Positions 11,948 to 49,800 of a stretch of DNA of 64,000 nucleotides are shown here, one piece after another. The translations under genes were made by a program, and so were the position numbers. The DNA comes from a phage: the NCBI GenBank assembly GCA_012401045.1, contig GCA_012401045.1_4704.1. The stretch is one strand, 5' to 3'. A model generated the notes under the pieces. It searched no databases. It worked only from the letters and a program-made list of their open reading frames with translations, and had not been told where the DNA came from. The first letter of the stretch is position 1; each line of letters starts with the position of its first letter.

Positions 11948-13402
11948 ATGAAACTTAAACAAAGCTGGAAAGACGAACTTCTCGCGTTAGTAAACAGCAA
12001 AAACAGTTTACAACTGACATTAGACGATGTAAAATTTGAACTAACGGCACCGGTAAGCGAAGTGCCTGGAACGGTCGTTGTTACAATCAAACCGAACGAT
12101 AATAGTCGCTACTTTAACGAGCAGTCTCTGACCTACATCCGTCGAGACATCGCTAAAAACTTCACTGGGATCCCGTTACGGGTCATCGTTAAAAAAGATA
12201 CCGCTGTAAGGGATATCATCAATACGATTGCTGAACGTTACGGATTGGTATTTGACACAGCCGTCGACTTCCTCGAATCCGAGCTGAATAAACAAATTAC
12301 GTTCGCAGACACCGGTATTAAAGACATTACGGTTCCGGTTGCAAACACGTCTTATGTTTGGGCGGGTAATCTTCAGTTCAATATTGCTAACGATACGTTA
12401 AGCTTGATTACTATCATCAAGAAAACCGATCTTACGAATCTGGTTTATCTGGATGGTGTTGAAGCTGACACATCTGGTTCGTTACTATTAGCAACCGCAG
12501 CACTTGTTAACGAACACGTAAATGAACCGATGGTTGAAAACGAAGATATCGTTAATGAATTTATTAACGTTCTTAATACTCTAGCCAAATATGGTGACAT
12601 AACCGGCGATGAATTAGATGCCGCCTTACAAGCGTACGATGAAGCAGAAAACAGGAATAAAACCACGGTAATAACTCTTGGTGATATCCAGTGTGTTGCA
12701 ACAGAAAAAGACGATTGGGAAATTGGACGTTTACGCGGTCAGATGGTTCTCGCGCTCAAATCCGATAAATACCCGGAGCCCGATAACACGTTCAGGTTGT
12801 TTACGAATGGTGGTGACGTATCGCTAACGTTAAACACAATGAAAGATATAAGTATCGATTGGGGTGATGGGAATAAAGTAACGTTGGATGCTGAAGAAAG
12901 ATACGCGCACCACACATACGCCGACAATAACCAGTACCAAATCGAAATTGTGTCTCGTACGGACCCAGATGTGCTGCGACCAAATTATATTTCTGGGAGT
13001 GAGATAACCGAAGTAATTCACTGGGCTACTACTTCAACAATAGCTCTGAATTTTGTTGGATGCGATAATTTAGCGACTGTTCCAGATGAGATCCCAACTT
13101 CGTGGACAACGTTGGACAGCATGTTTGAAAGTTGTACGAATTTGAATGATCCGTCTATCTCTAACTGGAATACAAGTAACATCACATCAATGAATGGTAT
13201 GTTCGGCGGATGCACTAAATTTAACCAACCTTTAGCTGCCTGGGATGTCAGCTCAGTAACTGACATTGGTGGTATGTTTAACGGATGCAACAGTTTTAAC
13301 CAAGATTTAAGTGGGTGGCGATTACCGTCAGGAGTAACCCACGACAATTACGATAGTGGTGCTTTCTCGTGGCAGACGGAACATAAACCGACGTTCCAGT
13401 AA
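11948..13402 (+). CDS. protein with C-terminal BspA-type repeats
   Basis: Repeats of the form MFxxCxxFNQxLxxWxVSxVTxMxxMF in the last ~100 residues. Confidence 0.5.
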   Translation: MKLKQSWKDELLALVNSKNSLQLTLDDVKFELTAPVSEVPGTVVVTIKPNDNSRYFNEQSLTYIRRDIAKNFTGIPLRVIVKKDTAVRDIINTIAERYGLVFDTAVDFLESELNKQITFADTGIKDITVPVANTSYVWAGNLQFNIANDTLSLITIIKKTDLTNLVYLDGVEADTSGSLLLATAALVNEHVNEPMVENEDIVNEFINVLNTLAKYGDITGDELDAALQAYDEAENRNKTTVITLGDIQCVATEKDDWEIGRLRGQMVLALKSDKYPEPDNTFRLFTNGGDVSLTLNTMKDISIDWGDGNKVTLDAEERYAHHTYADNNQYQIEIVSRTDPDVLRPNYISGSEITEVIHWATTSTIALNFVGCDNLATVPDEIPTSWTTLDSMFESCTNLNDPSISNWNTSNITSMNGMFGGCTKFNQPLAAWDVSSVTDIGGMFNGCNSFNQDLSGWRLPSGVTHDNYDSGAFSWQTEHKPTFQ

Positions 13403-13422
13403 AAAAAAAATAGTTAGCCTAT

Positions 13423-13455
13423 CTTCCTCCCTACCCATAACGGGCGGGGAGGAAG
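13423..13455 (+). terminator. intrinsic terminator-like hairpin followed by TTTTATGG
   Basis: CTTCCTCCC/GGGAGGAAG 9-bp stem 20 nt after the stop of 11948..13402, in a convergent gap. Confidence 0.45.
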
Positions 13456-13473
13456 GTTTTATGGCGTTATGAC

Positions 13474-13812
13474 TTAGAACCAGAGTTCTTTCATGAAGTA
13501 GGCTTCCGTATCGTAGATAAGCCACTCATCAGGGATTTCTAAAGGATCGTCTTCGGTTAAGGTGAGCATGTGCAGGGCGAACGCACGCTTAATATCTTCC
13601 AACAGCTTATCATCACCGTAACCTTCGGGTAGTTTACGGTCAGCCAGCTGAGTTTGTTTATAGACATCGCGGAACGCTTCAGGATTATGTTTATCCATCG
13701 GGAATTGTTCAGCAGCCTGAACCATCGAAAGCGTCCAGCTTACAACATTGTAACGCTCACCGTTAATTTCACTGAACTGATCATCGATTAAACAGATTTG
13801 TTGTATATTCAT
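13474..13812 (-). CDS. hypothetical protein (112 aa)
   Basis: ORF track. Confidence 0.45.
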   Translation of the reverse strand: MNIQQICLIDDQFSEINGERYNVVSWTLSMVQAAEQFPMDKHNPEAFRDVYKQTQLADRKLPEGYGDDKLLEDIKRAFALHMLTLTEDDPLEIPDEWLIYDTEAYFMKELWF

Positions 13813-14702
13813 TCATTTTCTCCATTCTTATCTTGGTCGCAATCACACTCTTCGACGTCTTTCTTACTTAAACGTAAGACACCGAGTGCGGCATGCTTGA
13901 GTTCTTGCAACGCGCTTTTCAGCTGACCTTCTTCATCGAAATCAAAATACTTCTCGTTGTAGCTTAATGCCGGAATCATATTTACGAGAGGTTCGATGGC
14001 GGGCATCAGCATTTCAATGACGACCTTAGGATCGACAAAGCGTTCAAACCCTTCAGGAAGTTTGCTCGCCACAACCTTATCGTTCTTGATGTAGAATTTG
14101 TTCTTGAATAGATCGTCAAGAATAGCATTCTCTTCATCCGTACGTTTTGCGTGAGGACGATCGATCATCTGCACAAACACACCGCTCAACGCTTCAGGCA
14201 AAGTCGGATTTTCACGAAGATAAGTTCCGGCCGGAATTTCAATATCGATCTTCGCCCACTCAACAACCTGGTGGTCTCGCGTATAGATGACGTCAACTTC
14301 CCATGCCAGACCGTCCGGACTTTCCACGGTGTAACGTGTTTTCGCTTGACCTTCCGGAGCCATACGCTCGATCGCGTCAAACATCTCGACTGGAATTTCG
14401 ACCTCGCTTTCCGTTGCATCACCTGGACCACGATACACCTTCGTGGTCATGATGTATTTCGGTTCTTCGTTATCGATCTGTATCGCACGTGCTCGTACTT
14501 GACCTTTCACACCACCAACGGCCGTGTTATCAAACAACCATTGATGCTGCACCATATGTTCGATTTTTGATGCGACTTGACGAAGACGTTCAACACCGTC
14601 TTCAGCCAGTTTACCAAAGAAGACCAGCTCACGTTCCTGCTGTGTCTCACCACTTAACATCATTAAATTGGCGATTTGTTTCACGCCTCTTACGTGTGAC
14701 AT
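13809..14702 (-). CDS. hypothetical acidic protein (297 aa)
   Basis: ORF track. Confidence 0.45.
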   Translation of the reverse strand: MSHVRGVKQIANLMMLSGETQQERELVFFGKLAEDGVERLRQVASKIEHMVQHQWLFDNTAVGGVKGQVRARAIQIDNEEPKYIMTTKVYRGPGDATESEVEIPVEMFDAIERMAPEGQAKTRYTVESPDGLAWEVDVIYTRDHQVVEWAKIDIEIPAGTYLRENPTLPEALSGVFVQMIDRPHAKRTDEENAILDDLFKNKFYIKNDKVVASKLPEGFERFVDPKVVIEMLMPAIEPLVNMIPALSYNEKYFDFDEEGQLKSALQELKHAALGVLRLSKKDVEECDCDQDKNGENE

Positions 14703-14770
14703 ACATGCTCCGGTTATAAGGGCCTGCTTCGAGACCCTTCATTGATTTTTGATTCCACCAAACGCTATCG

Positions 14771-17032
14771 TTACAATTCAAAATCTTCATCGATAACACG
14801 CTGGGTAAGCACTTTGTCGCTGAAGAACTCCACCTTGCGCTGATGGTATTTACGGTGCGCTTCGATAGAAGTACATACCAGATACCAGAACGTTGGCGTC
14901 ATTCCTTCAAACTTTCCTTTCAGCTGACGCAGTCGCCCCAACACCTGAATGTTACCGGTTCGTGACCCCATCGCTAATGTCATGAACGTCATCACCAAGT
15001 CAGGAAGGTCGATACCTGTACCTGCCGATTTCACCGTTGTAACGCTAATATCGTTATCCAGCAAGACCATGAAATCTTCTTCAGCGGTATAAGGACCGAT
15101 CTCTAACTCAGGGATACGTTCACTGAGATAATGCGACAACGACTTACACATATCGACGGTTGCACAATACACCAGCATCTTCATACCTTCCTGATACTGG
15201 TTCATGAAACCCTTGATAATAACGGTATAGATGAAGTTAAAATACGCGAGTTTGAGTTGCTTGTTCTTCATGATAGACTGTTCGAATATCGTGTGTGAAT
15301 AAGCTCCACCAAACCCTTTGTATCTGACTTTATCTGTACTGCGTAGTCGGTACGTTACCGCATTTACCGCAATGTATTTCTTGTATTCGCCTTTCGCATA
15401 ACGAGCTTCTTTCGGATACATCAAATACAGCATCTGTTCGATAAACGGATCATCGGATACCGCTGTTGCCGACAGATAAATGATTTCCGGAATATTGGCG
15501 TAACACTTGACCTTAAACAAGAAATGCAATGCTTCGTGACACTCGTCATGAATCAGCAAACCTATGCCGGTCTTTTCCCAAAACTCAGCGGGATGAAAGG
15601 CATATGGCGCAACGCAGTTATTCTTCTCGTAGTCCGCAATATAACGTTGGAACATGTTCAAGGAGAACAATGCGATTTTAAAGTCGAGTTCACCTTGTTC
15701 AACCAAGGTTTGAAACTCCAACATACTGTAACGAGGAATGTCGGGATGCGGTGGATCCTCCTTAGCGTTCCCGCGTATCTCGATAACGTCCCCTGGTTCC
15801 ATCCCGAAGAAGTTCAGCAGTGAGCTTCGCCAACCTGGCATATACCGTGGAGAAAGTATAATGCCTGTGCGCACACCCCGTCTGAACACGATTTCCTGCG
15901 ACATCGCGGTGTTATGCGTGACGATGTGGTCTTTAATAACATAAAGGCTTTCGTCATTGTCCACCGTGATGCAACGTGCTTTCGCTTTCACTGTCGGTAC
16001 GATGCTATCAATCGCTAAACCAGGAAGCCGGTTAACGGGGAGATCGTCTGGAACCTCAATGTCGTCAGGAATAAGCTTACGCAAATCGGAATGATAAATT
16101 AATGTCTCCATCGTGTAACTATCGATGGGGCATTTATACGCGATTCCTCCTAACTGATAAGCCAACTCCCAAACCTTGGCCGTTATCTGCGAATCGACGG
16201 TTCTGACCGCAAGGTGAGCTTGCCCGTTTCTGATTCTCAGTTCACAGCGACCTTTGATTACCGCCTTAAATTCCTCGATACCGACGAGTTCTTTCGGTTC
16301 GTAAAGTCGGATTCTTATTGGACGAGATCGAGCAGGTCTGTCGTAAAGACATTCCATGATTTCGTCCGTGCTGAGAACCTTATCGGGGTCAGTACACCGC
16401 CAGAGATGATCGCCACACGCTTCAACCATCCTACCGTCTTCAAAGAAGATAGCATGAAGCTGAATATCGTCATGATCAAATATAGCGGTTACGTTCGTCG
16501 GTAACCCATCCGCACCAACAACCTGATCCCCTACCTGAAGCTCACCAATCGGCTTCCAACCTCCTGGAACCTTCACGGGTGTGGTAAGCCGTACCGCTTT
16601 CCCTGACCCCGTTTGAGCGGTGTTTAGGCTCATTCTGAAGGGGGTATCCTTACCCCCGTCCATGTACTCCAACCATTCTTGCTGATCTTCACGCCATGGA
16701 AACTTCCATTTCTTTACGAACTCCACTTCTTTACCTGGTACCGGATCGTGATAGACGATTTCCAACCACTCTTTTCGTATCCCTCGGGAAAAGATAAAAT
16801 CCAAAAACGATTTCAACTGTTCACGGAGTAAGTATACCTCGCTATAATCGCTTCTTGCCGCGGCATACGTGTTTATGGTATCGGTAACCATTCTCCGTGT
16901 ACGAGGGTCACGCCGTTTCCTCAGATGCAAACAACGGTCTCGAAGGTAATGGCCGATAAGATGGGCAAATCGAAGTCCGTATCCGCTCAGCCTCATGCCA
17001 TGCGAGAAGACGTCGATACGAGCTAACTTCAT
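14771..17032 (-). CDS. SF2 DExH-box helicase whose P-loop is interrupted by an intein
   Basis: AQTGSGK then intein then T (restores Walker A); LIHDECHE Walker B; QVLGRLRQ motif VI; start ATG overlaps the TGA of the upstream gene. Confidence 0.6.
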   Translation of the reverse strand: MKLARIDVFSHGMRLSGYGLRFAHLIGHYLRDRCLHLRKRRDPRTRRMVTDTINTYAAARSDYSEVYLLREQLKSFLDFIFSRGIRKEWLEIVYHDPVPGKEVEFVKKWKFPWREDQQEWLEYMDGGKDTPFRMSLNTAQTGSGKAVRLTTPVKVPGGWKPIGELQVGDQVVGADGLPTNVTAIFDHDDIQLHAIFFEDGRMVEACGDHLWRCTDPDKVLSTDEIMECLYDRPARSRPIRIRLYEPKELVGIEEFKAVIKGRCELRIRNGQAHLAVRTVDSQITAKVWELAYQLGGIAYKCPIDSYTMETLIYHSDLRKLIPDDIEVPDDLPVNRLPGLAIDSIVPTVKAKARCITVDNDESLYVIKDHIVTHNTAMSQEIVFRRGVRTGIILSPRYMPGWRSSLLNFFGMEPGDVIEIRGNAKEDPPHPDIPRYSMLEFQTLVEQGELDFKIALFSLNMFQRYIADYEKNNCVAPYAFHPAEFWEKTGIGLLIHDECHEALHFLFKVKCYANIPEIIYLSATAVSDDPFIEQMLYLMYPKEARYAKGEYKKYIAVNAVTYRLRSTDKVRYKGFGGAYSHTIFEQSIMKNKQLKLAYFNFIYTVIIKGFMNQYQEGMKMLVYCATVDMCKSLSHYLSERIPELEIGPYTAEEDFMVLLDNDISVTTVKSAGTGIDLPDLVMTFMTLAMGSRTGNIQVLGRLRQLKGKFEGMTPTFWYLVCTSIEAHRKYHQRKVEFFSDKVLTQRVIDEDFEL
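15911..16597 (-). mobile_element. intein, 229 aa, class-3-like (Ala1, Trp/Cys/Thr triplet)
   Basis: Hint blocks GWKPIGELQVGDQVVGADG, CITVDNDESLYVIKDHIVTHN then Thr; inserted between Lys and Thr of GSGKT. Confidence 0.6.
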
Positions 17033-35133: not shown

Positions 35134-35370
35134 TTAGCAATGGTTGTTAGTTGCTTCTATTTCATCAAGATACGGTTCTACGTCATCGCCCTCCACGAAT
35201 TCGTTGAACCAACAGTCAATGGTAGAAATAACCGGCGACTGGTGTTCACATTTCTTAGATACCTTAAAAGGTACGTTATTATCCATCATACCGAGTTCGG
35301 GTCGAAAACGCCCGAAATGTTTCGCAGTCCAAATGTCTGGGACGATATGGTTGTTCATCGTAGTGTTCAG
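35134..35370 (-). CDS. RNA polymerase beta-prime N-terminal subunit, distal exon or separately translated piece
   Basis: TTMNNHIVPD...ELGMMDNNVP aligns to E. coli beta-prime QMAVHVPL...ALMMSTNNIL, the segment that follows DFDGD; 5' boundary uncertain (35367, 35370 or 35379). Confidence 0.45.
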   Translation of the reverse strand: MNTTMNNHIVPDIWTAKHFGRFRPELGMMDNNVPFKVSKKCEHQSPVISTIDCWFNEFVEGDDVEPYLDEIEATNNHC

Positions 35371-35713
35371 CATGAGTCGCTACCTCATACCCGCAGCTTT
35401 ACCTGCAGCTTCCGGTGTTACCGGAATGTCCAGAATATATCTTATCCATATTCCAAATGGAACGTAGGACTTCCGCGCTGGATCTCGCTTGAGACCACGT
35501 ATTCGTTGAACGTTCTCCTGAACGGAGCTTCGCTGCTGATCGAACATTGTCACGTACGGTAGGCATCCCCGAAGGGATTGTCATTGAAGCCGCGTACATC
35601 CGCTACCTTGTTTCTACCTTATCGGTTCCTCTTACGAGGCGTAGCAGCCTTAGCCCTTCCCAGCAATTCACGGAATCCAAGCTCTTCCTTTCGGAAGGCA
35701 GGGCCTATGATTA
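35371..35713 (-). ncRNA. second group I-like intron or degenerate intron spacer
   Basis: Minus-strand Q-like ATCAGCAGCGAAGC (35527-35540), R-like GTTCAACGAATACG (35498-35511), S-like AAGATATATTC (35433-35443); GNRA and UUCG-capped hairpins; no P1 guide found. Confidence 0.4.
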
Positions 35714-35726
35714 AGCGTCACCGTCG
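35714..35726 (-). CDS. 13-nt micro-exon CGACGGTGACGCT supplying the DGD of the catalytic motif
   Basis: Joined to exon 1 it reads NADF-DGD-A; its first four bases are complementary to the GUCG that sits directly 5' of the intron-1 guide sequence. Confidence 0.45.
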
Positions 35727-36103
35727 CTGTTTATCGACTATATCTTCATCCTCGTTGCGAGGAGTCTCCCGTTTTGGTCTGTGTTTAACAGAGCCTACTC
35801 TACTCGACATCGCGTCTTTCGATAGTCTGTGAGCACACATCTTAACAAACATTCGTGGATTCCTAAACAGGTGAATGTTCTTGTTGAGATGCTTCGCTGC
35901 GGATTATTCCCGTCCTACCTCTTTTACCGTACCCAGTTCATTACGCTGGCCCTCATCTATGTCACCACGATGAGTTGGTGTGTAGTCCGATTACAGAAAC
36001 TTCCCGTCAATTAGAGAGCTTTAACTACGTTCCTGTTACCAGAAACCCGACTCCGACGGCATCAATAAATCAACATAAGTTATTGATTTAATTGAAAAAA
36101 CTG
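35727..36103 (-). ncRNA. group I self-splicing intron, 377 nt, no internal ORF
   Basis: Minus-strand P AATTGACGGGAAG (36000-36012), Q AATCCGCAGC (35896-35905), R CACAGACTA (35823-35831), S AAGATATAGTC (35736-35746); guide GAGUCGG (36047-36053) pairs exon end CCGACUU with terminal U-G; ends in G at 35727. Confidence 0.7.
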
Positions 36104-37359
36104 AAGTCGGCATTATAACCTTTGAGGATCATCACGCTTAACCCGATGGTGTTATCCTGCGGATCGCGTTTAACCTTGGTGATTTCAAGACATTGGTTAC
36201 TGCTTCGGTCAAGTGATGGGTTTCGAACAAAGCCGCACACAATCCCATCGAACGGTGTATCAGCAATAAGCTCATCGTGCAGCTCGCTCATCATCGGATG
36301 ATAATTACGGACATGTTCCGCAACGAACGCACGCGCTGCTCTCGGTGAATAACCACGATGGAATAACTTGGATTGGATATGTTCTTTATTGGTTAAAGTA
36401 AATGGTGCGTATGGGAAATGCAGATGATAATAACGATGGTTCGCTGTTATCGAACTGATTACGGTACGCGTGGTGAATGGATGTAATGTACCTAATATGT
36501 TTTTACGTGTAATACCTTTCTTCTTACCGATGAACTCATCGAAAATCGCCGCGTGGTATTGCAGTAGCTTCAATTGCACTTTCGCCATCCAGTTTTCTTT
36601 CTTTCTGGCGCTCAAAGGTGTTGTTGGATGATAGATACTGTTCAACGTACCGATAGCATCGATCGCACCTTCCATTTTGCTATCCGCATAACGACCGGTT
36701 GGCGTATTCTCGATAACGAACATCATGGCCGCAGGAAAGCTGATATACTGACTGAAGAACTTATCACGATGGATACGGATGAATTCTCGTAGCGTGTCAA
36801 CTTTCTCCGTGTTCTTCGGTCCACGTAACGTCGGTCCTTTATACAAGATCTCCATGATGCGATCGAAGTTCTGTATAAAACTATTTACACCGCGACGTAT
36901 CCCGAATACATCGAATTGCTGCTCCAGATAGTTCTTGAGTTCGATGGGTCGTTTTACATTTGGACGGTAACTGGCATCAATGAGCCACGTCATCGTTTCA
37001 AAGCTTTTGATATTCAACTCGCTTGCCAGCACGAGATGGACCAACGGGTTAATGAACGCATCGATTCCTTCAGGAACACGCGCCCAAACCGTCGAACGAA
37101 TCTCCTGTTCTGCCGGGTAGGTCACAACCGTTTTACAGTTTGGACACACCGTGCCGAGTAGCTCACCACGATTGTAGAAACCACAACCACACTGTGGTGT
37201 GATATCCAGCGTATCGCTGGAGTAAACACGGGTGATAAAACTGTTTAATTTCTTCTTCTCTTCGACGACTTTTGTATCGTAATCATTCAACAAAATCGGC
37301 GTAAAAGGAAGTTCTGCGAGCTGTCTATCGAAACTCACGATATCGAGCATGATGGCCAT
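36104..37359 (-). CDS. RNA polymerase beta-prime N-terminal subunit, exon 1
   Basis: N-terminal Zn ribbon QCGCG...CPNC; ends GYNADF matching E. coli AYNADFDGD; unspliced frame gives NADFSFFN then stop at 36088. Confidence 0.7.
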
Positions 37360-37451: not shown

Positions 37452-39347
37452 TTAGAACAGATTGAATGCCCCACCCATGTTGTTAACGCCAACATTCGGA
37501 CGATCGCTACGTGCGTAGATGTTACCGGAGATGTTACCCAGACCACGAGCACGTGCTGCCATGTTACCACGAACAGCGGTACCTGCCAGATGCTGGATGT
37601 TCTCAGGACGGATGGTGAAGCCAGCATCAGCAGCGGCTTCGATCAGCGCCTGCAGTGCTAACGGATCGAAGTCGTAACGCATTGCCCAGCCGGTTTGTTC
37701 CCAGCTACCAGACAGAACACGATCGATGATTTCGTGACGAGCGACAACACGCTGAGACATCGTCATATCGGTACGGTCGAAGCTGTCTTCCCAAGCTTCT
37801 ACGGTATCCGGGTTAGTGATGTTCATCATGTACAGATCGTCCATATCACGAATATCGTGACGGTGACCATCCTGGTGGTTGTAGTGACCCAGCGGGATAC
37901 GGTTACCGGTAGCGTAGACCAGCGGTTGGCCGTATTGATATTTCTTGCTGAAGCAACCCAGGGTAACATCATCGAACGCACGGAAGAGGGCTTTGTAACC
38001 TTCGGAGATTTCACGGACTTCACCTTCAACTTTGCCCGTATAGATCTTCTCAGCCGCCGGGATCATACGCAGCAGCCAGCTGTACTCACCTTCTTCCGGT
38101 ACGTCGATAGAAATCAGCAGAGACGGATACAGTACCTGTTGCAGGAACTTGTAAATCTGCTCGTTGGTTTGAGTAGACAGATCCAGCGGTGCGGTAACTT
38201 CCGGATCCAGTACCATCGCCAGAGCACCCGGGTTATGCGGACCAATACCACGGGCAGCGTTGCTGATTAAAGACTGTGCCCACGCCATACCGCTGTTCAG
38301 CGTAGCGATGGTGCCAATCAGACCCAACACGAAAGTGTTCGGTGTGAACGCATCCAGCTCCAGCGGGTAAGCGCTGGTCATCACGTAACGCGGCTGGTAT
38401 TGTACAGTCGGCGGTACCGGATAACCGTTAACCAGAACAGGGCCTTGGTTGAAGGTCGGGTTCTGCGGGCTGTAAGTCAGGTCAATGTAACCGGTGGTGG
38501 CGACCAGACGCTGTTGACTATCGTAATCGCTCATCGCTTGACGGATGCGGTTAGAGATAGTTACAGTGATGTCAGAACGCACAGGGTTACCAACAATATC
38601 GCTGTCCTGCATACCGCTGGTGTTGTACTGAACGCTGCTGATTGGCTGATCGCTTGCCATCATGCCCAGGTTGAACTGCGGCAGACCCAGTTTATCACCG
38701 AGACGGATTTCGATCGCGGTTTGGATTGCGTTATCTGCAGCAGACAGCAGGGTGGTTGCCAGATGCGCAGATTCAGCGGTGATTTCATTGGTCACCACAG
38801 CCAGACCAGCGATACGAACAGTACCGTTAGACTTACCGCCAATAGCTGAGTACATTGCCGCCATGACTTCGTTGATGAACGTACCGTTCAGGTTATCAAC
38901 CCAGGTACGCGGTACCAGAATGTTACCATGCGGACCTTGTTCTTCACGACGCGGCAGCGGAGCCAGACCAGCAACCAGCGGAAGCACATAACCAAAGAAG
39001 TGGTTATGGTCACCAACTTTTGCACCACTCATAACGACCAGGGTCGGATACGGTACGCTGTACTGGTTCGGGTCAACCGCAACAAAGATGAAGTCGTTTT
39101 TGAACTGGGTATCTTCCAGATATTTCTCCATCAGACGACGGAGATTCAGTACCTGCTCGGAGCCAGTATTACGGCTAATACGACGGCTCAGTGTACGGTT
39201 GATCGTACGCATCGTATGAGTTACTTTAGGCTGGCCAGCAAAATCTGCAGCGGTTTCCAGCGCCTCATCAGCACGTTGTGCGGTGCGGGTTTCAGCTGCA
39301 CGAATTTCTACATTATCGTTACCGTTATTACGTACGTCTAAGCCCAT
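37452..39347 (-). CDS. candidate chimallin (phage nucleus shell protein), 631 aa
   Basis: Size matches chimallin; sits immediately upstream of the beta-prime N-terminal gene as phiKZ gp54 does; early-promoter-like motif upstream; not confirmed by sequence similarity. Confidence 0.45.
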   Translation of the reverse strand: MGLDVRNNGNDNVEIRAAETRTAQRADEALETAADFAGQPKVTHTMRTINRTLSRRISRNTGSEQVLNLRRLMEKYLEDTQFKNDFIFVAVDPNQYSVPYPTLVVMSGAKVGDHNHFFGYVLPLVAGLAPLPRREEQGPHGNILVPRTWVDNLNGTFINEVMAAMYSAIGGKSNGTVRIAGLAVVTNEITAESAHLATTLLSAADNAIQTAIEIRLGDKLGLPQFNLGMMASDQPISSVQYNTSGMQDSDIVGNPVRSDITVTISNRIRQAMSDYDSQQRLVATTGYIDLTYSPQNPTFNQGPVLVNGYPVPPTVQYQPRYVMTSAYPLELDAFTPNTFVLGLIGTIATLNSGMAWAQSLISNAARGIGPHNPGALAMVLDPEVTAPLDLSTQTNEQIYKFLQQVLYPSLLISIDVPEEGEYSWLLRMIPAAEKIYTGKVEGEVREISEGYKALFRAFDDVTLGCFSKKYQYGQPLVYATGNRIPLGHYNHQDGHRHDIRDMDDLYMMNITNPDTVEAWEDSFDRTDMTMSQRVVARHEIIDRVLSGSWEQTGWAMRYDFDPLALQALIEAAADAGFTIRPENIQHLAGTAVRGNMAARARGLGNISGNIYARSDRPNVGVNNMGGAFNLF

Positions 39348-46006: not shown

Positions 46007-46601
46007 CTGTTAGCTCCTGGGGACGTTCAACAATCGCGCCAGACGGGCAGATATTGATCGTAATGTTAATTGACGGCATCGCCATCACTCGAGGATTACT
46101 ATTACGTACGCGGACAACATGTTCGGTTGCTGATTTACGATCGACGCAATACTCTGTTTCTTGGAACTCAAATGCTTTTAACGGCGTTGGTTTTGTTTGA
46201 CGTTTAGGAACGCGGCCAAGATCAACAATATAGGCATAATCGCACACACGTTCTATTCCGTAAATACGGTTATCCGACCAGTTCTTACCAAACAGCTTGT
46301 TGTGATGATAAGACAAATATTCGGTTACCATACCCTGGACAACATCGAAATCTTCTCGAAATTCAGGTTGGTACCAAATCGGGCCGAGAATATCTGCGAA
46401 CGATTCATGACGATATCGAGGATCATGTCGAGTCCAGGTCATTCTCTGGTTAAGATCGAAATCCACCAACAACTCGGTTAATTGCAATTTTTCCTTCGGA
46501 GAAAGCTGGCGTTGATGATGCAAACTCAGACAATCGATAAGCGGTAATGAAACCCACGATGCTAATGTGTACAAATCGATCCTGGCTAATCTCTTGGTCA
46601 T
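45624..46601 (-). CDS. hypothetical protein; C-terminal extent uncertain
   Basis: Last ~45 residues are Arg-rich and overlap the next ORF. Confidence 0.4.
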   Translation of the reverse strand: MTKRLARIDLYTLASWVSLPLIDCLSLHHQRQLSPKEKLQLTELLVDFDLNQRMTWTRHDPRYRHESFADILGPIWYQPEFREDFDVVQGMVTEYLSYHHNKLFGKNWSDNRIYGIERVCDYAYIVDLGRVPKRQTKPTPLKAFEFQETEYCVDRKSATEHVVRVRNSNPRVMAMPSINITINICPSGAIVERPQELTDEQFEWLGQLEELRLAHAKRKAEQLANEPVYIKQGLALKERFKQRRSVFGPVQPVLYEFGVPEYRMDAESVATAFLDNGEIHRQGARSSGPFRPVRVQRPRRHRHTKSRTGNDDVSRDMDRSHYRTY

Positions 46602-46692
46602 ACTCTTTTCCTAAGTCCCCATTGTTTATACACACGATATCTGGGAATAGTTAAAATATACGGCGTAAAACGAAGCAGGAGAGTTTCTGACG

Positions 46693-47013
46693 TCATTTTC
46701 TCCCTCTTCGAATACTACCGATACCTCTTTCGTCTAAGACGTCCCAGGCACGCTTTATTTCATCCTCCGTTGCTCTGGTATCTGGAGGGACAACCATAAC
46801 ACAGTCGTGGAACGGCCAATGTGTAGGTCTGGGGTTAGCGAACAAATCATCCCATTCAAATGTCCATTCTTTCTTTGAGCGATTGTAGTAGAGTGTAAGG
46901 TACGTGTTGGTATACGCCGGATAACCGCGCATAACTTCAATATCCTTACGATCTTGCCGTTCCTGATTCCAATCGTTAAACCGCTTTCTTATTTTCTCCC
47001 ACCACTTTCCCAT
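46693..47013 (-). CDS. hypothetical protein (106 aa)
   Basis: ORF track. Confidence 0.45.
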   Translation of the reverse strand: MGKWWEKIRKRFNDWNQERQDRKDIEVMRGYPAYTNTYLTLYYNRSKKEWTFEWDDLFANPRPTHWPFHDCVMVVPPDTRATEDEIKRAWDVLDERGIGSIRRGRK

Positions 47014-47066
47014 GCTTTCTCCTACACGGCATAAAAGCCTGCCCCGAAGGACAGGCTCGATAGAAC

Positions 47067-47267
47067 TTAACGACCATCCAATTTCAATGAAGGATGGTTG
47101 ACGATATGTGCGTGTTTTGCTGGGTCATATAGCTGATATGGAAAATAGCCATGCCATTGACGGCCTTGGCATTTCGTACACAGGAACTGACCAACACCTT
47201 GTCGATTCTCGTAAGCGAGTTCGGTACTATCAACATGACCGCAACGTTCGCAGATAAACAGCGACAT
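47067..47267 (-). CDS. small Zn-ribbon protein
   Basis: CERCGH...CTKCQG cysteine pairs. Confidence 0.4.
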   Translation of the reverse strand: MSLFICERCGHVDSTELAYENRQGVGQFLCTKCQGRQWHGYFPYQLYDPAKHAHIVNHPSLKLDGR

Positions 47268-47304
47268 AGCGCATCCCCATTCACTTGAACCTTTTGGTTC
47301 GGCA

Positions 47305-48285
47305 TTAGAAAAGCAAGAAACCGCTATTCTTCGCTTCCGCTACAGTTTCGTCACCAACTTTCGGTGCCTGTTGACGCGCGTTACGATGTTCGATGTAACG
47401 TTTCGCTTCGTCAGCGATTTGTTTGATAATACCCCCTAAACGATCGGTACTTAAAACAAACGACGTCGCTTCACGAATTGGGCTGCTTTCAGGCACAAAA
47501 CCATCGCAGCTGTAAATAGCGCTAACGCCCATGACTTTTGTCGCGTCTTTCGGATAAAGCGTACAGAAAGCAATCGGGCTATCGTTCTCTTTCGTCCAAT
47601 CGTATCCCATGAACGTATTCAGTTCGGTGATCGTTGGTTCCAAACCGGTAACACGTGGATGGTTTAAGAAGTTTTCCAGGTCGGCGCTGTCAAGACGACG
47701 GTTCTCGCCAGAAAACAGAACACAAAGCTGGCTAATAACAACCTGCACGTCCAGGTTGACATCCTGCTCCGATTTCCCATTTTCGCCATTCATGTGATAG
47801 CTAACAATCACTGGACGTTTCAACCCTTCTGCAGCCGCCATCAGTCCTTTGAAGGTGCGATCGGCGTTGATCGTTTGACGCTCATCATCGAACGAGGCAA
47901 CGATGCAACACACCACACGTTCACCACGTTCCAGCAGGTTAGCAACCAACGCAGGACCTGCAACAGAACCTGAACCACCGCTCAGACTAAAGACCACGAT
48001 ATTAAATTTACCTGGCGTATGCTTATTCAGAATACCCGGGATTTGTGAACAGATCAGTTCAGCGTTCTCATCACGCTTCTTACCAGAACCGTCTAACTCA
48101 CGACCGGCTGCATCTTTAAAGATGTAAATATGATCGTCACCCAGTGTGCTATCGCGTAGGTTAGCGCGGCTGGTATCGACATACGTCATGCTGTGTAATC
48201 CTTTCGCGACTTCGCCTTCAAATGCTGAGCCGATTTCGCCACCACAACCACCGACAGCCCAAATATGTACTTGGTTCTCTTGCAT
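47305..48285 (-). CDS. phuZ: PhuZ-type phage tubulin/FtsZ-family GTPase
   Basis: N-terminal IWAVGGCGGEIG and tubulin signature SLSGGSGSVAGP, matching the PhuZ YSLGGGSGSVLGP region; AGGAG upstream of ATG. Confidence 0.7.
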   Translation of the reverse strand: MQENQVHIWAVGGCGGEIGSAFEGEVAKGLHSMTYVDTSRANLRDSTLGDDHIYIFKDAAGRELDGSGKKRDENAELICSQIPGILNKHTPGKFNIVVFSLSGGSGSVAGPALVANLLERGERVVCCIVASFDDERQTINADRTFKGLMAAAEGLKRPVIVSYHMNGENGKSEQDVNLDVQVVISQLCVLFSGENRRLDSADLENFLNHPRVTGLEPTITELNTFMGYDWTKENDSPIAFCTLYPKDATKVMGVSAIYSCDGFVPESSPIREATSFVLSTDRLGGIIKQIADEAKRYIEHRNARQQAPKVGDETVAEAKNSGFLLF

Positions 48286-48349
48286 GTGAACTCCTAACTT
48301 AATATGTATTTAACGTACAATGAATCTTTCTTTGCTAAAGGGGTGACCC

Positions 48350-49192
48350 ATGGGTGCTATTGACTACAGTGTAGATCGTATCTGTCGTACAATACCGGCA
48401 GATATCCTACAGTATTGCTATATCGATCGTTACGACTGGCGTAATCGCTATCCTCGTTCCGTAGAAGACATCATTACCGATTGGGTAATCCGTAAACGGG
48501 TTATCGGCGACATCGATATCTACGGGGGACTACAAACCGTTATTCCCCTTGATGATGCAGGTGTCACAATCGAAGAAGTCACCATTAACTGTTATGTTTT
48601 CCACATTCCGTTGGAAGCCACACAGGGACGTTATATCACGTCCGCATTATCCATTATTTCAGGGAGCGTGAACAACTACGGAATAAACTATAACGGGCAA
48701 TGGGGCGCTTTCAACCAAACCCAATTTCAACGTCAGCTTTGTGGGTGGAACCCCGCAAGCAACACGTTACAGCAAGGGATGAACGCGTTCGGTCCCATGA
48801 ACGTTCTTAGTACAGCCAACGTTGATATCATCGCCCCTAACACCATCATGGTGAACAACGTCACGCCTGTACAATTTCCCCTGAGCCTACGCTGTTTCCT
48901 TGCCCACGATCCGGAACTTACCAACCTCAGCATGGAGGTTTGGAACGACTTCTACAAACTCTGTTTATACGCCACGCAAAGTGACATCTACAACAGAACC
49001 GTTATCCGTCTCGATAGAGGTGTTACAGCACAAGGACAAGAAGTCGGTGCATTCAAGGAATACATCGATCGCTTTGCTGATGCTGAAAACACATATCAGG
49101 AATTCCTGAACGAAACGTGGGCAGGCGTTGCTGCCTGGAACGATCCGCAAACTAAACGTCGCGCCATTCGACTACAAACCGGTTACTTCTGA
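48350..49192 (+). CDS. hypothetical protein (280 aa)
   Basis: ORF track; divergent from phuZ. Confidence 0.5.
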   Translation: MGAIDYSVDRICRTIPADILQYCYIDRYDWRNRYPRSVEDIITDWVIRKRVIGDIDIYGGLQTVIPLDDAGVTIEEVTINCYVFHIPLEATQGRYITSALSIISGSVNNYGINYNGQWGAFNQTQFQRQLCGWNPASNTLQQGMNAFGPMNVLSTANVDIIAPNTIMVNNVTPVQFPLSLRCFLAHDPELTNLSMEVWNDFYKLCLYATQSDIYNRTVIRLDRGVTAQGQEVGAFKEYIDRFADAENTYQEFLNETWAGVAAWNDPQTKRRAIRLQTGYF

Positions 49193-49800
49193 TTAACGAC
49201 AGCTTCCTCCCTCGGTGTTTTCGAGGGAGGTATTTGCCGTTTAAACACTTTCAGCACGTTCGCAAATTCAGCGGCAATAATACAGGCCGAGGTTGATAGC
49301 TTATTACTGAAAATGAGATCGTCCGGTAAACAATCGAACTGAATACCGTATTGCGTCTTTGTCTCATCAACGATCAATGACGGTGTCGATCTTGTCTTCG
49401 CGATGTCGGTGATATACAAACGTAGAAATAATTCACCGTCTTCGCTATCCATAAAACGATAGGCGTTACCAGAAAACGCAACACATGGCGTAACGATAAA
49501 TTGAACACGATCGTCGGTCGGATGGATATTTAACCAACGTTCGATATCATTACTACTCACATTTCGCATATTTACTACGGTAAAAGCAAATAGCGTATCG
49601 TGATGTTTGGAATAATGCAGCACGTACGCCGCACCTTTCTTTTTGTGAATCCCTTCAATGTATTCTATTGTCGTATAGCCGGATTTATATAGCTTTACTT
49701 GCGGTTTATCACTCATCATAACAACCCTTCCCGTTTCATCGCGGCACGCATACTTGCGTAAAGCGCATTCTTCATTGCACCCGGACGCAACGGATAACAA
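49183..49800 (-). CDS. hypothetical protein (205 aa)
   Basis: ORF track; C-terminal codons run through a CCTCCCTCG/CGAGGGAGG hairpin at 49206-49230. Confidence 0.45.
   Translation of the reverse strand: MLSVASGCNEECALRKYACRDETGRVVMMSDKPQVKLYKSGYTTIEYIEGIHKKKGAAYVLHYSKHHDTLFAFTVVNMRNVSSNDIERWLNIHPTDDRVQFIVTPCVAFSGNAYRFMDSEDGELFLRLYITDIAKTRSTPSLIVDETKTQYGIQFDCLPDDLIFSNKLSTSACIIAAEFANVLKVFKRQIPPSKTPREEAVVNQK

Follow-up and report, generated by a model that had tools for sequence, protein, structure and literature searches.

The question raised by this locus is whether an open reading frame (ORF) on the minus strand of phage contig GCA_012401045.1_4704.1 encodes a tubulin and, if it does, what that tubulin does during infection. 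The window, i.e. the whole stretch of 64,000 nucleotides that was analysed, had been read before from its letters alone. This sequence-only reading assigned the ORF to PhuZ, placed the phage among the nucleus-forming jumbo phages and attributed to the protein a spindle that centres the phage nucleus. We are nearly certain that the ORF is phuZ, the gene for a phage-encoded tubulin/FtsZ-family GTPase of a Goslarvirus. The family and the kind of phage were therefore named correctly, while the centring spindle does not apply to this lineage (see below).

The argument starts from the identity of the locus. In megablast searches the phuZ gene had a sole match, Escherichia phage vB_EcoM_Goslar (98.1% identity, 100% query cover), and the same phage was the sole match of a 24-kb stretch around it (97.9% identity, 100% query cover). 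By BLAST, the whole window is colinear with the 132-200 kb region of Goslar at 95-98.6% nucleotide identity, except for three indel or divergent spots, and identity drops to 91.6% over positions 13370-15914. The window is thus part of the genome of a Goslarvirus, one of a group of jumbo phages that infect E. coli, Salmonella and Shigella, encode chimallin and form a phage nucleus; the Goslar genome itself measures 237 kb. The encoded protein is identical to Goslar PhuZ (gp234, YP_009820885.1 / QBO63993.1 'Goslar_00201'), which RefSeq annotates as 'tubulin PhuZ', at 325 of 326 residues (99.7%); the sole amino acid difference is conservative, residue 229 being D in the window and E in Goslar (D229E). 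At the codon level the two genes differ at 19 positions, 18 of them synonymous and 1 non-synonymous, a ratio of non-synonymous to synonymous differences (pN/pS) of ~0.016. The exact window protein is found on 488 public contigs, the longest of 259 kb, mostly under the name 'hypothetical protein [Salmonella enterica]'; the D229 protein is thus the commonest variant in public data, the Goslar reference variant being found on 10 contigs. This spread fits the published expansion of Goslarvirus, in which 1 genome became 237 as further ones were recovered from assemblies of Salmonella, E. coli and Shigella (PMC12768965), and the window probably derives from one such genome concealed among assemblies of bacterial isolates.

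Sequence and fold searches lead to the same family. A profile search gave PhuZ as the best match, at practically full length (PHROG 4733 'tubulin PhuZ', E = 2.9e-68, residues 1-323 of 326). In the PDB sequence search, the first rank was taken by the Goslar PhuZ structures solved by cryo-electron microscopy (cryo-EM; 9pm9/9pmk, E = 4e-220), the second by phiKZ gp039 (3zbp/3zbq, E = 7.8e-29) and the third by PhuZ201 (3r4v/3rb8/3j5v, E ~6e-15), and neither FtsZ nor TubZ appeared at E<=1. The entry 9pm9 is titled 'PhuZ Tubulin from phage Goslar (locally refined monomer)' and was released on 2025-12-24; 9pmk holds the filament. A literature search for the paper behind 9pm9 and 9pmk found none, the code being cited by one unrelated benchmarking preprint alone, and the PhuZ structure is described neither in the Avs5 paper nor in the Goslar virion paper. 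An AlphaFold model of the window protein, built with 24 homologues (predicted local distance difference test (pLDDT) 86.9; predicted template-modelling score (pTM) 0.86), predicts the tubulin/FtsZ fold, with an N-terminal GTPase domain, H7, an activation domain and a long C-terminal helix (residues 281-305) that was taken as H11. When this model was searched with Foldseek, it matched 9pm9 with a template-modelling (TM) score of 0.91 and the phiKZ and 201phi2-1 PhuZ structures (3zbq/3rb8) with TM scores of 0.80-0.82 over 307-318 columns (E 1e-22 to 1e-25); CetZ, TubZ of Clostridium phage c-st, FtsZ and Bacillus thuringiensis TubZ trailed the PhuZ structures by 9-15 orders of magnitude. By tblastn, PhuZ homologues occur in 173 phage records, many of them annotated as PhuZ or tubulin. 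Among the records listed, all are jumbo phages (203-309 kb), with hosts that include Pseudomonas, Erwinia, Serratia, Klebsiella, Ralstonia and Vibrio.

The residues expected of a working GTPase are in place. The N-terminal glycine motif and the tubulin signature, from which the family had originally been recognised, are indeed present at residues 8-19 and 100-111 (Table 1). The PhuZ motif used for comparison at that time, YSLGGGSGSVLGP, is really found in PhuZ of 201phi2-1 (PDB 3r4v/3rb8), where it aligns with the tubulin signature of the window protein. Family alignments of 14-24 members showed G12, G13, G15, D37, T38, G66, G68, R71, G103-S107, N140, D199 and D202 to be invariant or nearly invariant; within the signature, at least one of the two alignments shows G104, S105, G106, S107, V108, G110 and P111 as invariant or nearly invariant. 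The catalytic aspartate of the T7 loop, D202, is intact.

For the C-terminal tail, the earlier claim needs refining. The string KVGDETVAEAKNSGFLLF (residues 309-326) had been proposed as the acidic tail-knuckle used in filament assembly. In phiKZ and 201phi2-1, H11 runs into a tail that is ordered along the adjacent subunit, the 'acidic knuckle', burying ~1000 square angstroms (PMC3678025). The window tail (…ARQQAPKVGDETVAEAKNSGFLLF) aligns with the phiKZ-like …KRQSTLDVDD-QATSSGLVFD (…LDVDDQATSSGLVFD) and with the PhiPA3 …RNAIIDIDD-NRTDDGFVV (…IDIDDNRTDDGFVV), and D312 alone aligns with one of the three aspartates of the phiKZ D(V)DD. Judged from these alignments, the window tail and the knuckle tail are homologous by position, and the former is weakly acidic: its last 22 residues hold 3 acidic and 2 basic residues, and most family members carry 3-5 acidic residues just ahead of the hydrophobic terminus (the extremes being 1 and 8). 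The best-conserved element of the aligned tails is this hydrophobic terminus: a run of 3-4 hydrophobic residues ends all 28/28 family members, it is nearly always preceded by a glycine, and G322 is nearly invariant. The tail is modelled with low confidence (pLDDT 47-59), as expected because such a tail orders only in the polymer.

Several observations might be held against the assignment. The Pfam Tubulin profile scored 29.9 bits on the window protein, under the 33-bit gathering cut-off, the Pfam TubZ_C_2 profile (PF22334, gathering threshold 27 bits) gave no match even at E<=10, and NCBIfam gave no match. The knuckle contact may differ in detail, the tail being much less acidic than the phiKZ-type tail. 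Finally, the published phenotypes come from the E229 protein of Goslar and the window variant is D229. In our own weighing none of this is substantive. PF22334 also failed to match a relative whose PhuZ is 56% identical (P0003); it scored 124 bits on phiKZ-like PhuZ and 47.6 bits on another relative (P0006). PhuZ proteins of the Goslar clade are ~24-34% identical to other PhuZ, and the missing TubZ_C_2 and NCBIfam matches therefore indicate a sequence-divergent PhuZ branch; because the fold is shared, the PF22334 miss reflects this divergence and not a different domain.

Could the protein instead be a TubZ-type DNA-segregation motor, partitioning the phage genome as an episome through a TubZ-TubR-tubC system? 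The superfamily is the same, TubZ of c-st and of B. thuringiensis were among the fold matches (E = 1e-13 to 1e-10), and Goslarvirus genomes are frequent in assemblies of bacterial isolates, a carrier-like state having been proposed for such phages (PMC12768965). However, PhuZ structures ranked first and matched the window protein better than TubZ by at least 10 orders of magnitude, and TubZ was absent from the PDB sequence search at E<=1. The genes flanking phuZ (a zinc-ribbon ORF and a DUF7484 gene) showed no winged-helix, helix-turn-helix or TubR-like match, and no direct repeats or iterons were found within 46600-49300. In addition, imaging of the Goslar protein, which is almost the same, showed a vortex around the nucleus (PMC9891218). 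We thus consider a segregation motor very improbable.

A captured or host-derived FtsZ that would manipulate host cell division has still less in its favour. E. coli and Klebsiella FtsZ share the fold and came up in the fold search at E ~1e-10 to 1e-11, but identity in the fold alignments was just 12-16% and the PDB sequence search returned no FtsZ at E<=1. Megablast against 5,426 complete E. coli genomes gave no match, and the protein has the H11 helix and tail of PhuZ in place of an FtsZ-type C-terminal linker or conserved peptide, so that this origin can be regarded as negligible. The findings that the sequence-only reading had named as fatal to it, best homology to host FtsZ or to plasmid TubZ beside a tubR-like gene, were thus looked for and not found. 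An equally negligible reading, a decaying and non-functional tubulin remnant, might be suggested by the fact that PhuZ is non-essential, non-core and repeatedly lost in Chimalliviridae, whole genera being devoid of it (PMC13282480, PMC12768965), but it is refuted by the selection signature, i.e. the 18:1 excess of synonymous changes over the single conservative one; moreover, the gene is full length with all its catalytic residues intact, and the identical protein occurs on 488 contigs.

With the ORF taken as phuZ, what the protein does can be approached through Goslar. By homology with phiKZ and 201phi2-1, GTP-bound PhuZ monomers would join head to tail with the nucleotide held by the T1-T6 loops, D202 of one subunit's T7 loop would complete the GTPase site of the next subunit, and the C-terminal tail, lying along the neighbouring subunit, may stabilise the polymer. 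From the near-identical Goslar protein, the filaments would wrap the chimallin-shelled nucleus and extend to the membrane as a vortex-like array, and their GTP-dependent dynamics would push on the membrane and make the nucleus rotate, without positioning it at mid-cell. In Goslar-infected cells, fluorescent PhuZ fusions form such a vortex-like array around the chimallin shell, reaching the membrane (PMC9891218), and the direction of nucleus rotation follows filament orientation (PMC9891218; reviewed in PMC12908238, PMC13282480). D202 is the residue that was changed to alanine in Goslar PhuZ, with a dominant-negative effect and hyper-stable filaments (PMC9891218): PhuZ(D202A) needs much less expression to polymerise, no vortex forms and rotation is strongly reduced (PMC9891218), while the position and growth of the nucleus are unchanged (PMC9891218; PMC12908238, PMC13282480). 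At 99.7% identity, the vortex, the rotation and the D202A phenotype would be expected to transfer to the window protein; a contact made by the tail and, if there is any, capsid trafficking in the Goslar lineage would follow by homology only. The notion of a spindle that centres the nucleus fits the Pseudomonas phages and does not apply to the Goslar lineage, because the vortex of Goslar PhuZ turns the nucleus and because D202A leaves positioning unchanged.

The placement of the phage among the nucleus-forming jumbo phages is borne out by more than the tubulin. Many chimalliviruses lack PhuZ, which is not a core protein of the group, and it is therefore chimallin, and not PhuZ, that strictly defines nucleus-forming phages (PMC13282480). 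Here, the chimallin gene and phuZ both lie in the window, ~8 kb apart, and the colinearity with Goslar points the same way.

Table 1. Motifs, genes and signals of the phuZ locus and the chimallin gene, in window coordinates
Feature	Position	Strand	Basis or remark
phuZ coding sequence, Goslar gp234 orthologue	47305..48285	-	ATG-to-stop ORF, 326 amino acids plus stop
T1 glycine-rich nucleotide-binding loop IWAVGGCGGEIG, residues 8-19	48229..48264	-	G12 and G13 invariant, G15 nearly so
T4 loop / tubulin signature SLSGGSGSVAGP, residues 100-111	47953..47988	-	G103 invariant in both alignments
T7 / synergy-loop DSADLEN, residues 199-205, catalytic D202	47671..47691	-	D199 and D202 invariant in family alignments
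C-terminal tail past helix H11, residues 306-326 (QQAPKVGDETVAEAKNSGFLLF in last 22)	47308..47370	-	Family alignment
Shine-Dalgarno AGGAG, 5 nucleotides 5' of the phuZ ATG	48291..48295	-	Direct sequence reading
66-amino-acid CxxC…CxxC zinc-ribbon ORF (Goslar gp235)	47067..47267	-	ORF listing; 37 nucleotides 3' of phuZ
Intrinsic-terminator hairpin AGCCTGTCC-TTCG-GGGCAGGCT, then TTTTAT	47031..47057	-	Direct sequence reading; ends the phuZ/zinc-ribbon unit
Divergent DUF7484 gene (Goslar gp233)	48350..49192	+	Pfam PF24302 E = 1.4e-87; PHROG 3179
Chimallin (ChmA, nuclear shell protein)	37452..39347	-	PHROG 4795 'nuclear shell protein' E = 4.8e-55; Goslar gp246 orthologue by colinearity

phuZ is probably co-transcribed with the small zinc-ribbon ORF that follows it. 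The GC-rich hairpin and T-run downstream of the pair were found by reading the sequence, a simple consensus terminator scan having failed to report them, and they coincide with the terminator annotated in Goslar at 180588-180607. A scan for sigma-70 promoters around phuZ gave no more matches than shuffled sequence, as is expected of a phage transcribed by RNA polymerases of its own, and a tRNA search of the window found none.

The two neighbours of phuZ differ in their distribution. The zinc-ribbon ORF matches Pfam Zn_ribbon_Elf1 weakly (E = 9e-4, below the cut-off), and its CxxC…CxxC and WHG motifs are invariant. Two metagenomic relatives, with PhuZ proteins 56% and 61% identical to that of the window, have the ORF at the corresponding place, and it was not found beside phuZ in a 33%-identical relative (P0004-type phuZ), in PhiPA3, in a phiKZ-like phage or in Ea35-70; a search of 5.8 billion proteins returned Goslar-clade copies only. 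It is tempting to speculate, from conserved synteny alone, that the zinc-ribbon protein might be a lineage-specific accessory factor of PhuZ, although we would give this little chance. In Ea35-70 and three metagenomic relatives, too, a DUF7484 gene lies next to phuZ or close by, and the pairing is therefore older than the Goslar clade.

Elsewhere in the window, we noted two genes that appear to be interrupted. In the gene for an RNA polymerase beta'-like subunit (36088..37359, minus strand), …GYNADF is followed by a group I intron (35727..36094, minus strand) that splits the catalytic NADF-DGD motif between NADF and DGD. This intron matches RF00028 over the full model with 49.3 bits, slightly short of the 50-bit gathering score, and an Rfam scan of the whole window at gathering threshold gave no match. 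Goslar carries an extra 1065 bp at the intron (Goslar locus 36218-37282), encoding an HNH homing endonuclease and flanked by a 14-nucleotide inverted repeat (TTACGTGCACCGAC/GTCGGTGCACGTAA), where the window has 2 nucleotides (junction 35728/35731); the window therefore holds an endonuclease-free version of the intron, lacking the homing endonuclease gene. Directly past the intron lie 13 nucleotides, C GAC GGT GAC GCT, which would complete …F-D-G-D-A. They are followed by a second group I-like element within 35359..35726 (minus strand; RF00028 23.8 bits, E = 4.5e-4), in which the conserved core motifs are present and which has no annotation in the Goslar record. After it, the frame resumes at MNNHIVPD within the ORF annotated as Goslar gp185. 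The conceptual product of splicing, which would read NADFDGDAMNNHIVP, can be aligned gap-free with PhiPA3 gp054, which is uninterrupted (NADFDGDQLNLTLMPD), and it also matches genes that many chimalliviruses carry in one piece. The arrangement suggests tandem introns with a 13-nucleotide micro-exon between them. Gene fission is the alternative: the 13 nucleotides run directly into a TAA stop, and the ORF of gp185 has an ATG of its own.

The second interrupted gene encodes a helicase of superfamily 2 (14771..17032, minus strand), with 753 amino acids vs 524 in Goslar gp164. The extra 228 amino acids (15914..16597, minus strand) are inserted in frame inside the Walker A motif, between GSGK and T; the insert starts with Ala, ends with VTHN and is followed by Thr. 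It matched DnaB mini-intein structures (6rix/6bs8, E = 2.4e-10) and the gp41-1 intein, and Pfam gave no match on it. From its ends and the mini-intein match, we infer an intein, with no counterpart in Goslar, that possibly belongs to the class lacking an N-terminal nucleophile. Nearby, the C-terminal part (12495..13370) of a DUF285/BspA-like repeat protein (11948..13402, plus strand; Goslar gp161) had no megablast match to Goslar. Together with the low-identity segment that follows it, which compares with 97-98% elsewhere, it makes 12495..15914 a local hot spot of divergence.

What do these results add? The window PhuZ is already known: it is annotated in RefSeq, and for the near-identical Goslar protein there are in vivo imaging, a mutant and a cryo-EM structure. 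The present analysis establishes the identity of the window protein, its motifs, its fold, purifying selection on its gene and its genomic context. PhuZ itself therefore adds little, Goslarvirus relatives being already catalogued in bacterial assemblies, and the practical value lies in a secure label for the whole window as a Goslarvirus (Chimalliviridae) segment. The probable tandem introns in the RNA polymerase catalytic motif, the presence or absence of the HNH gene, the helicase intein and the phuZ-linked zinc-ribbon gene are more informative on lineage variation than the tubulin, and around phuZ the zinc-ribbon ORF is the sole lead towards something new.

Comparison with the known tubulin systems of phages and plasmids places the window protein more precisely. 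TubZ (Clostridium phage c-st and Bacillus plasmids of the pBtoxis/pXO1 type) belongs to the same tubulin superfamily and, like the window PhuZ, has a C-terminal tail; the TubZ tail serves DNA partition by recruiting the centromere complex TubR-tubC, whereas the window phuZ has no such partner or repeats beside it, and the structural match is much weaker. phiKZ gp039 (TubZ/PhuZ; 3zbp, 3zbq) is considerably closer: it shares the tubulin/FtsZ fold, the long H11 and a C-terminal tail, which in phiKZ becomes ordered on the adjacent subunit, the fold alignment gives a TM score of 0.80 at ~27% identity, and the T1, T4 and T7 residues are the same. It differs by a more acidic tail (DVDD) and by a C-terminal domain that, in phiKZ-like proteins, matches TubZ_C_2, which that of the Goslar clade does not. 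Filaments of the phiKZ type are three-stranded and build a bipolar spindle that centres the nucleus. PhuZ of 201phi2-1 (gp59; 3r4v, 3rb8, 3j5v), the founding member of the family, has the same GGSGSV signature and the same catalytic Asp, with TM scores of 0.81-0.82 and ~23% identity to the window protein. Its filament is also three-stranded, and the spindle, the centring and the capsid trafficking were shown for 201phi2-1 (PMC13282480, PMC12908238), not for Goslar-type PhuZ.

A third arrangement is provided by PhuZ of Erwinia phage RAY and its relatives (Ea35-70 gp207), a chimallivirus tubulin ~27-28% identical to the window protein: in RAY, five strands make up each filament, a hollow tube, and the nucleus rarely rotates. 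Ea35-70 keeps a divergent DUF7484 neighbour, as in the window. The closest system is Goslar itself, in which phuZ has the same genomic position, the same neighbours, the same ribosome-binding site and the same terminator as in the window.

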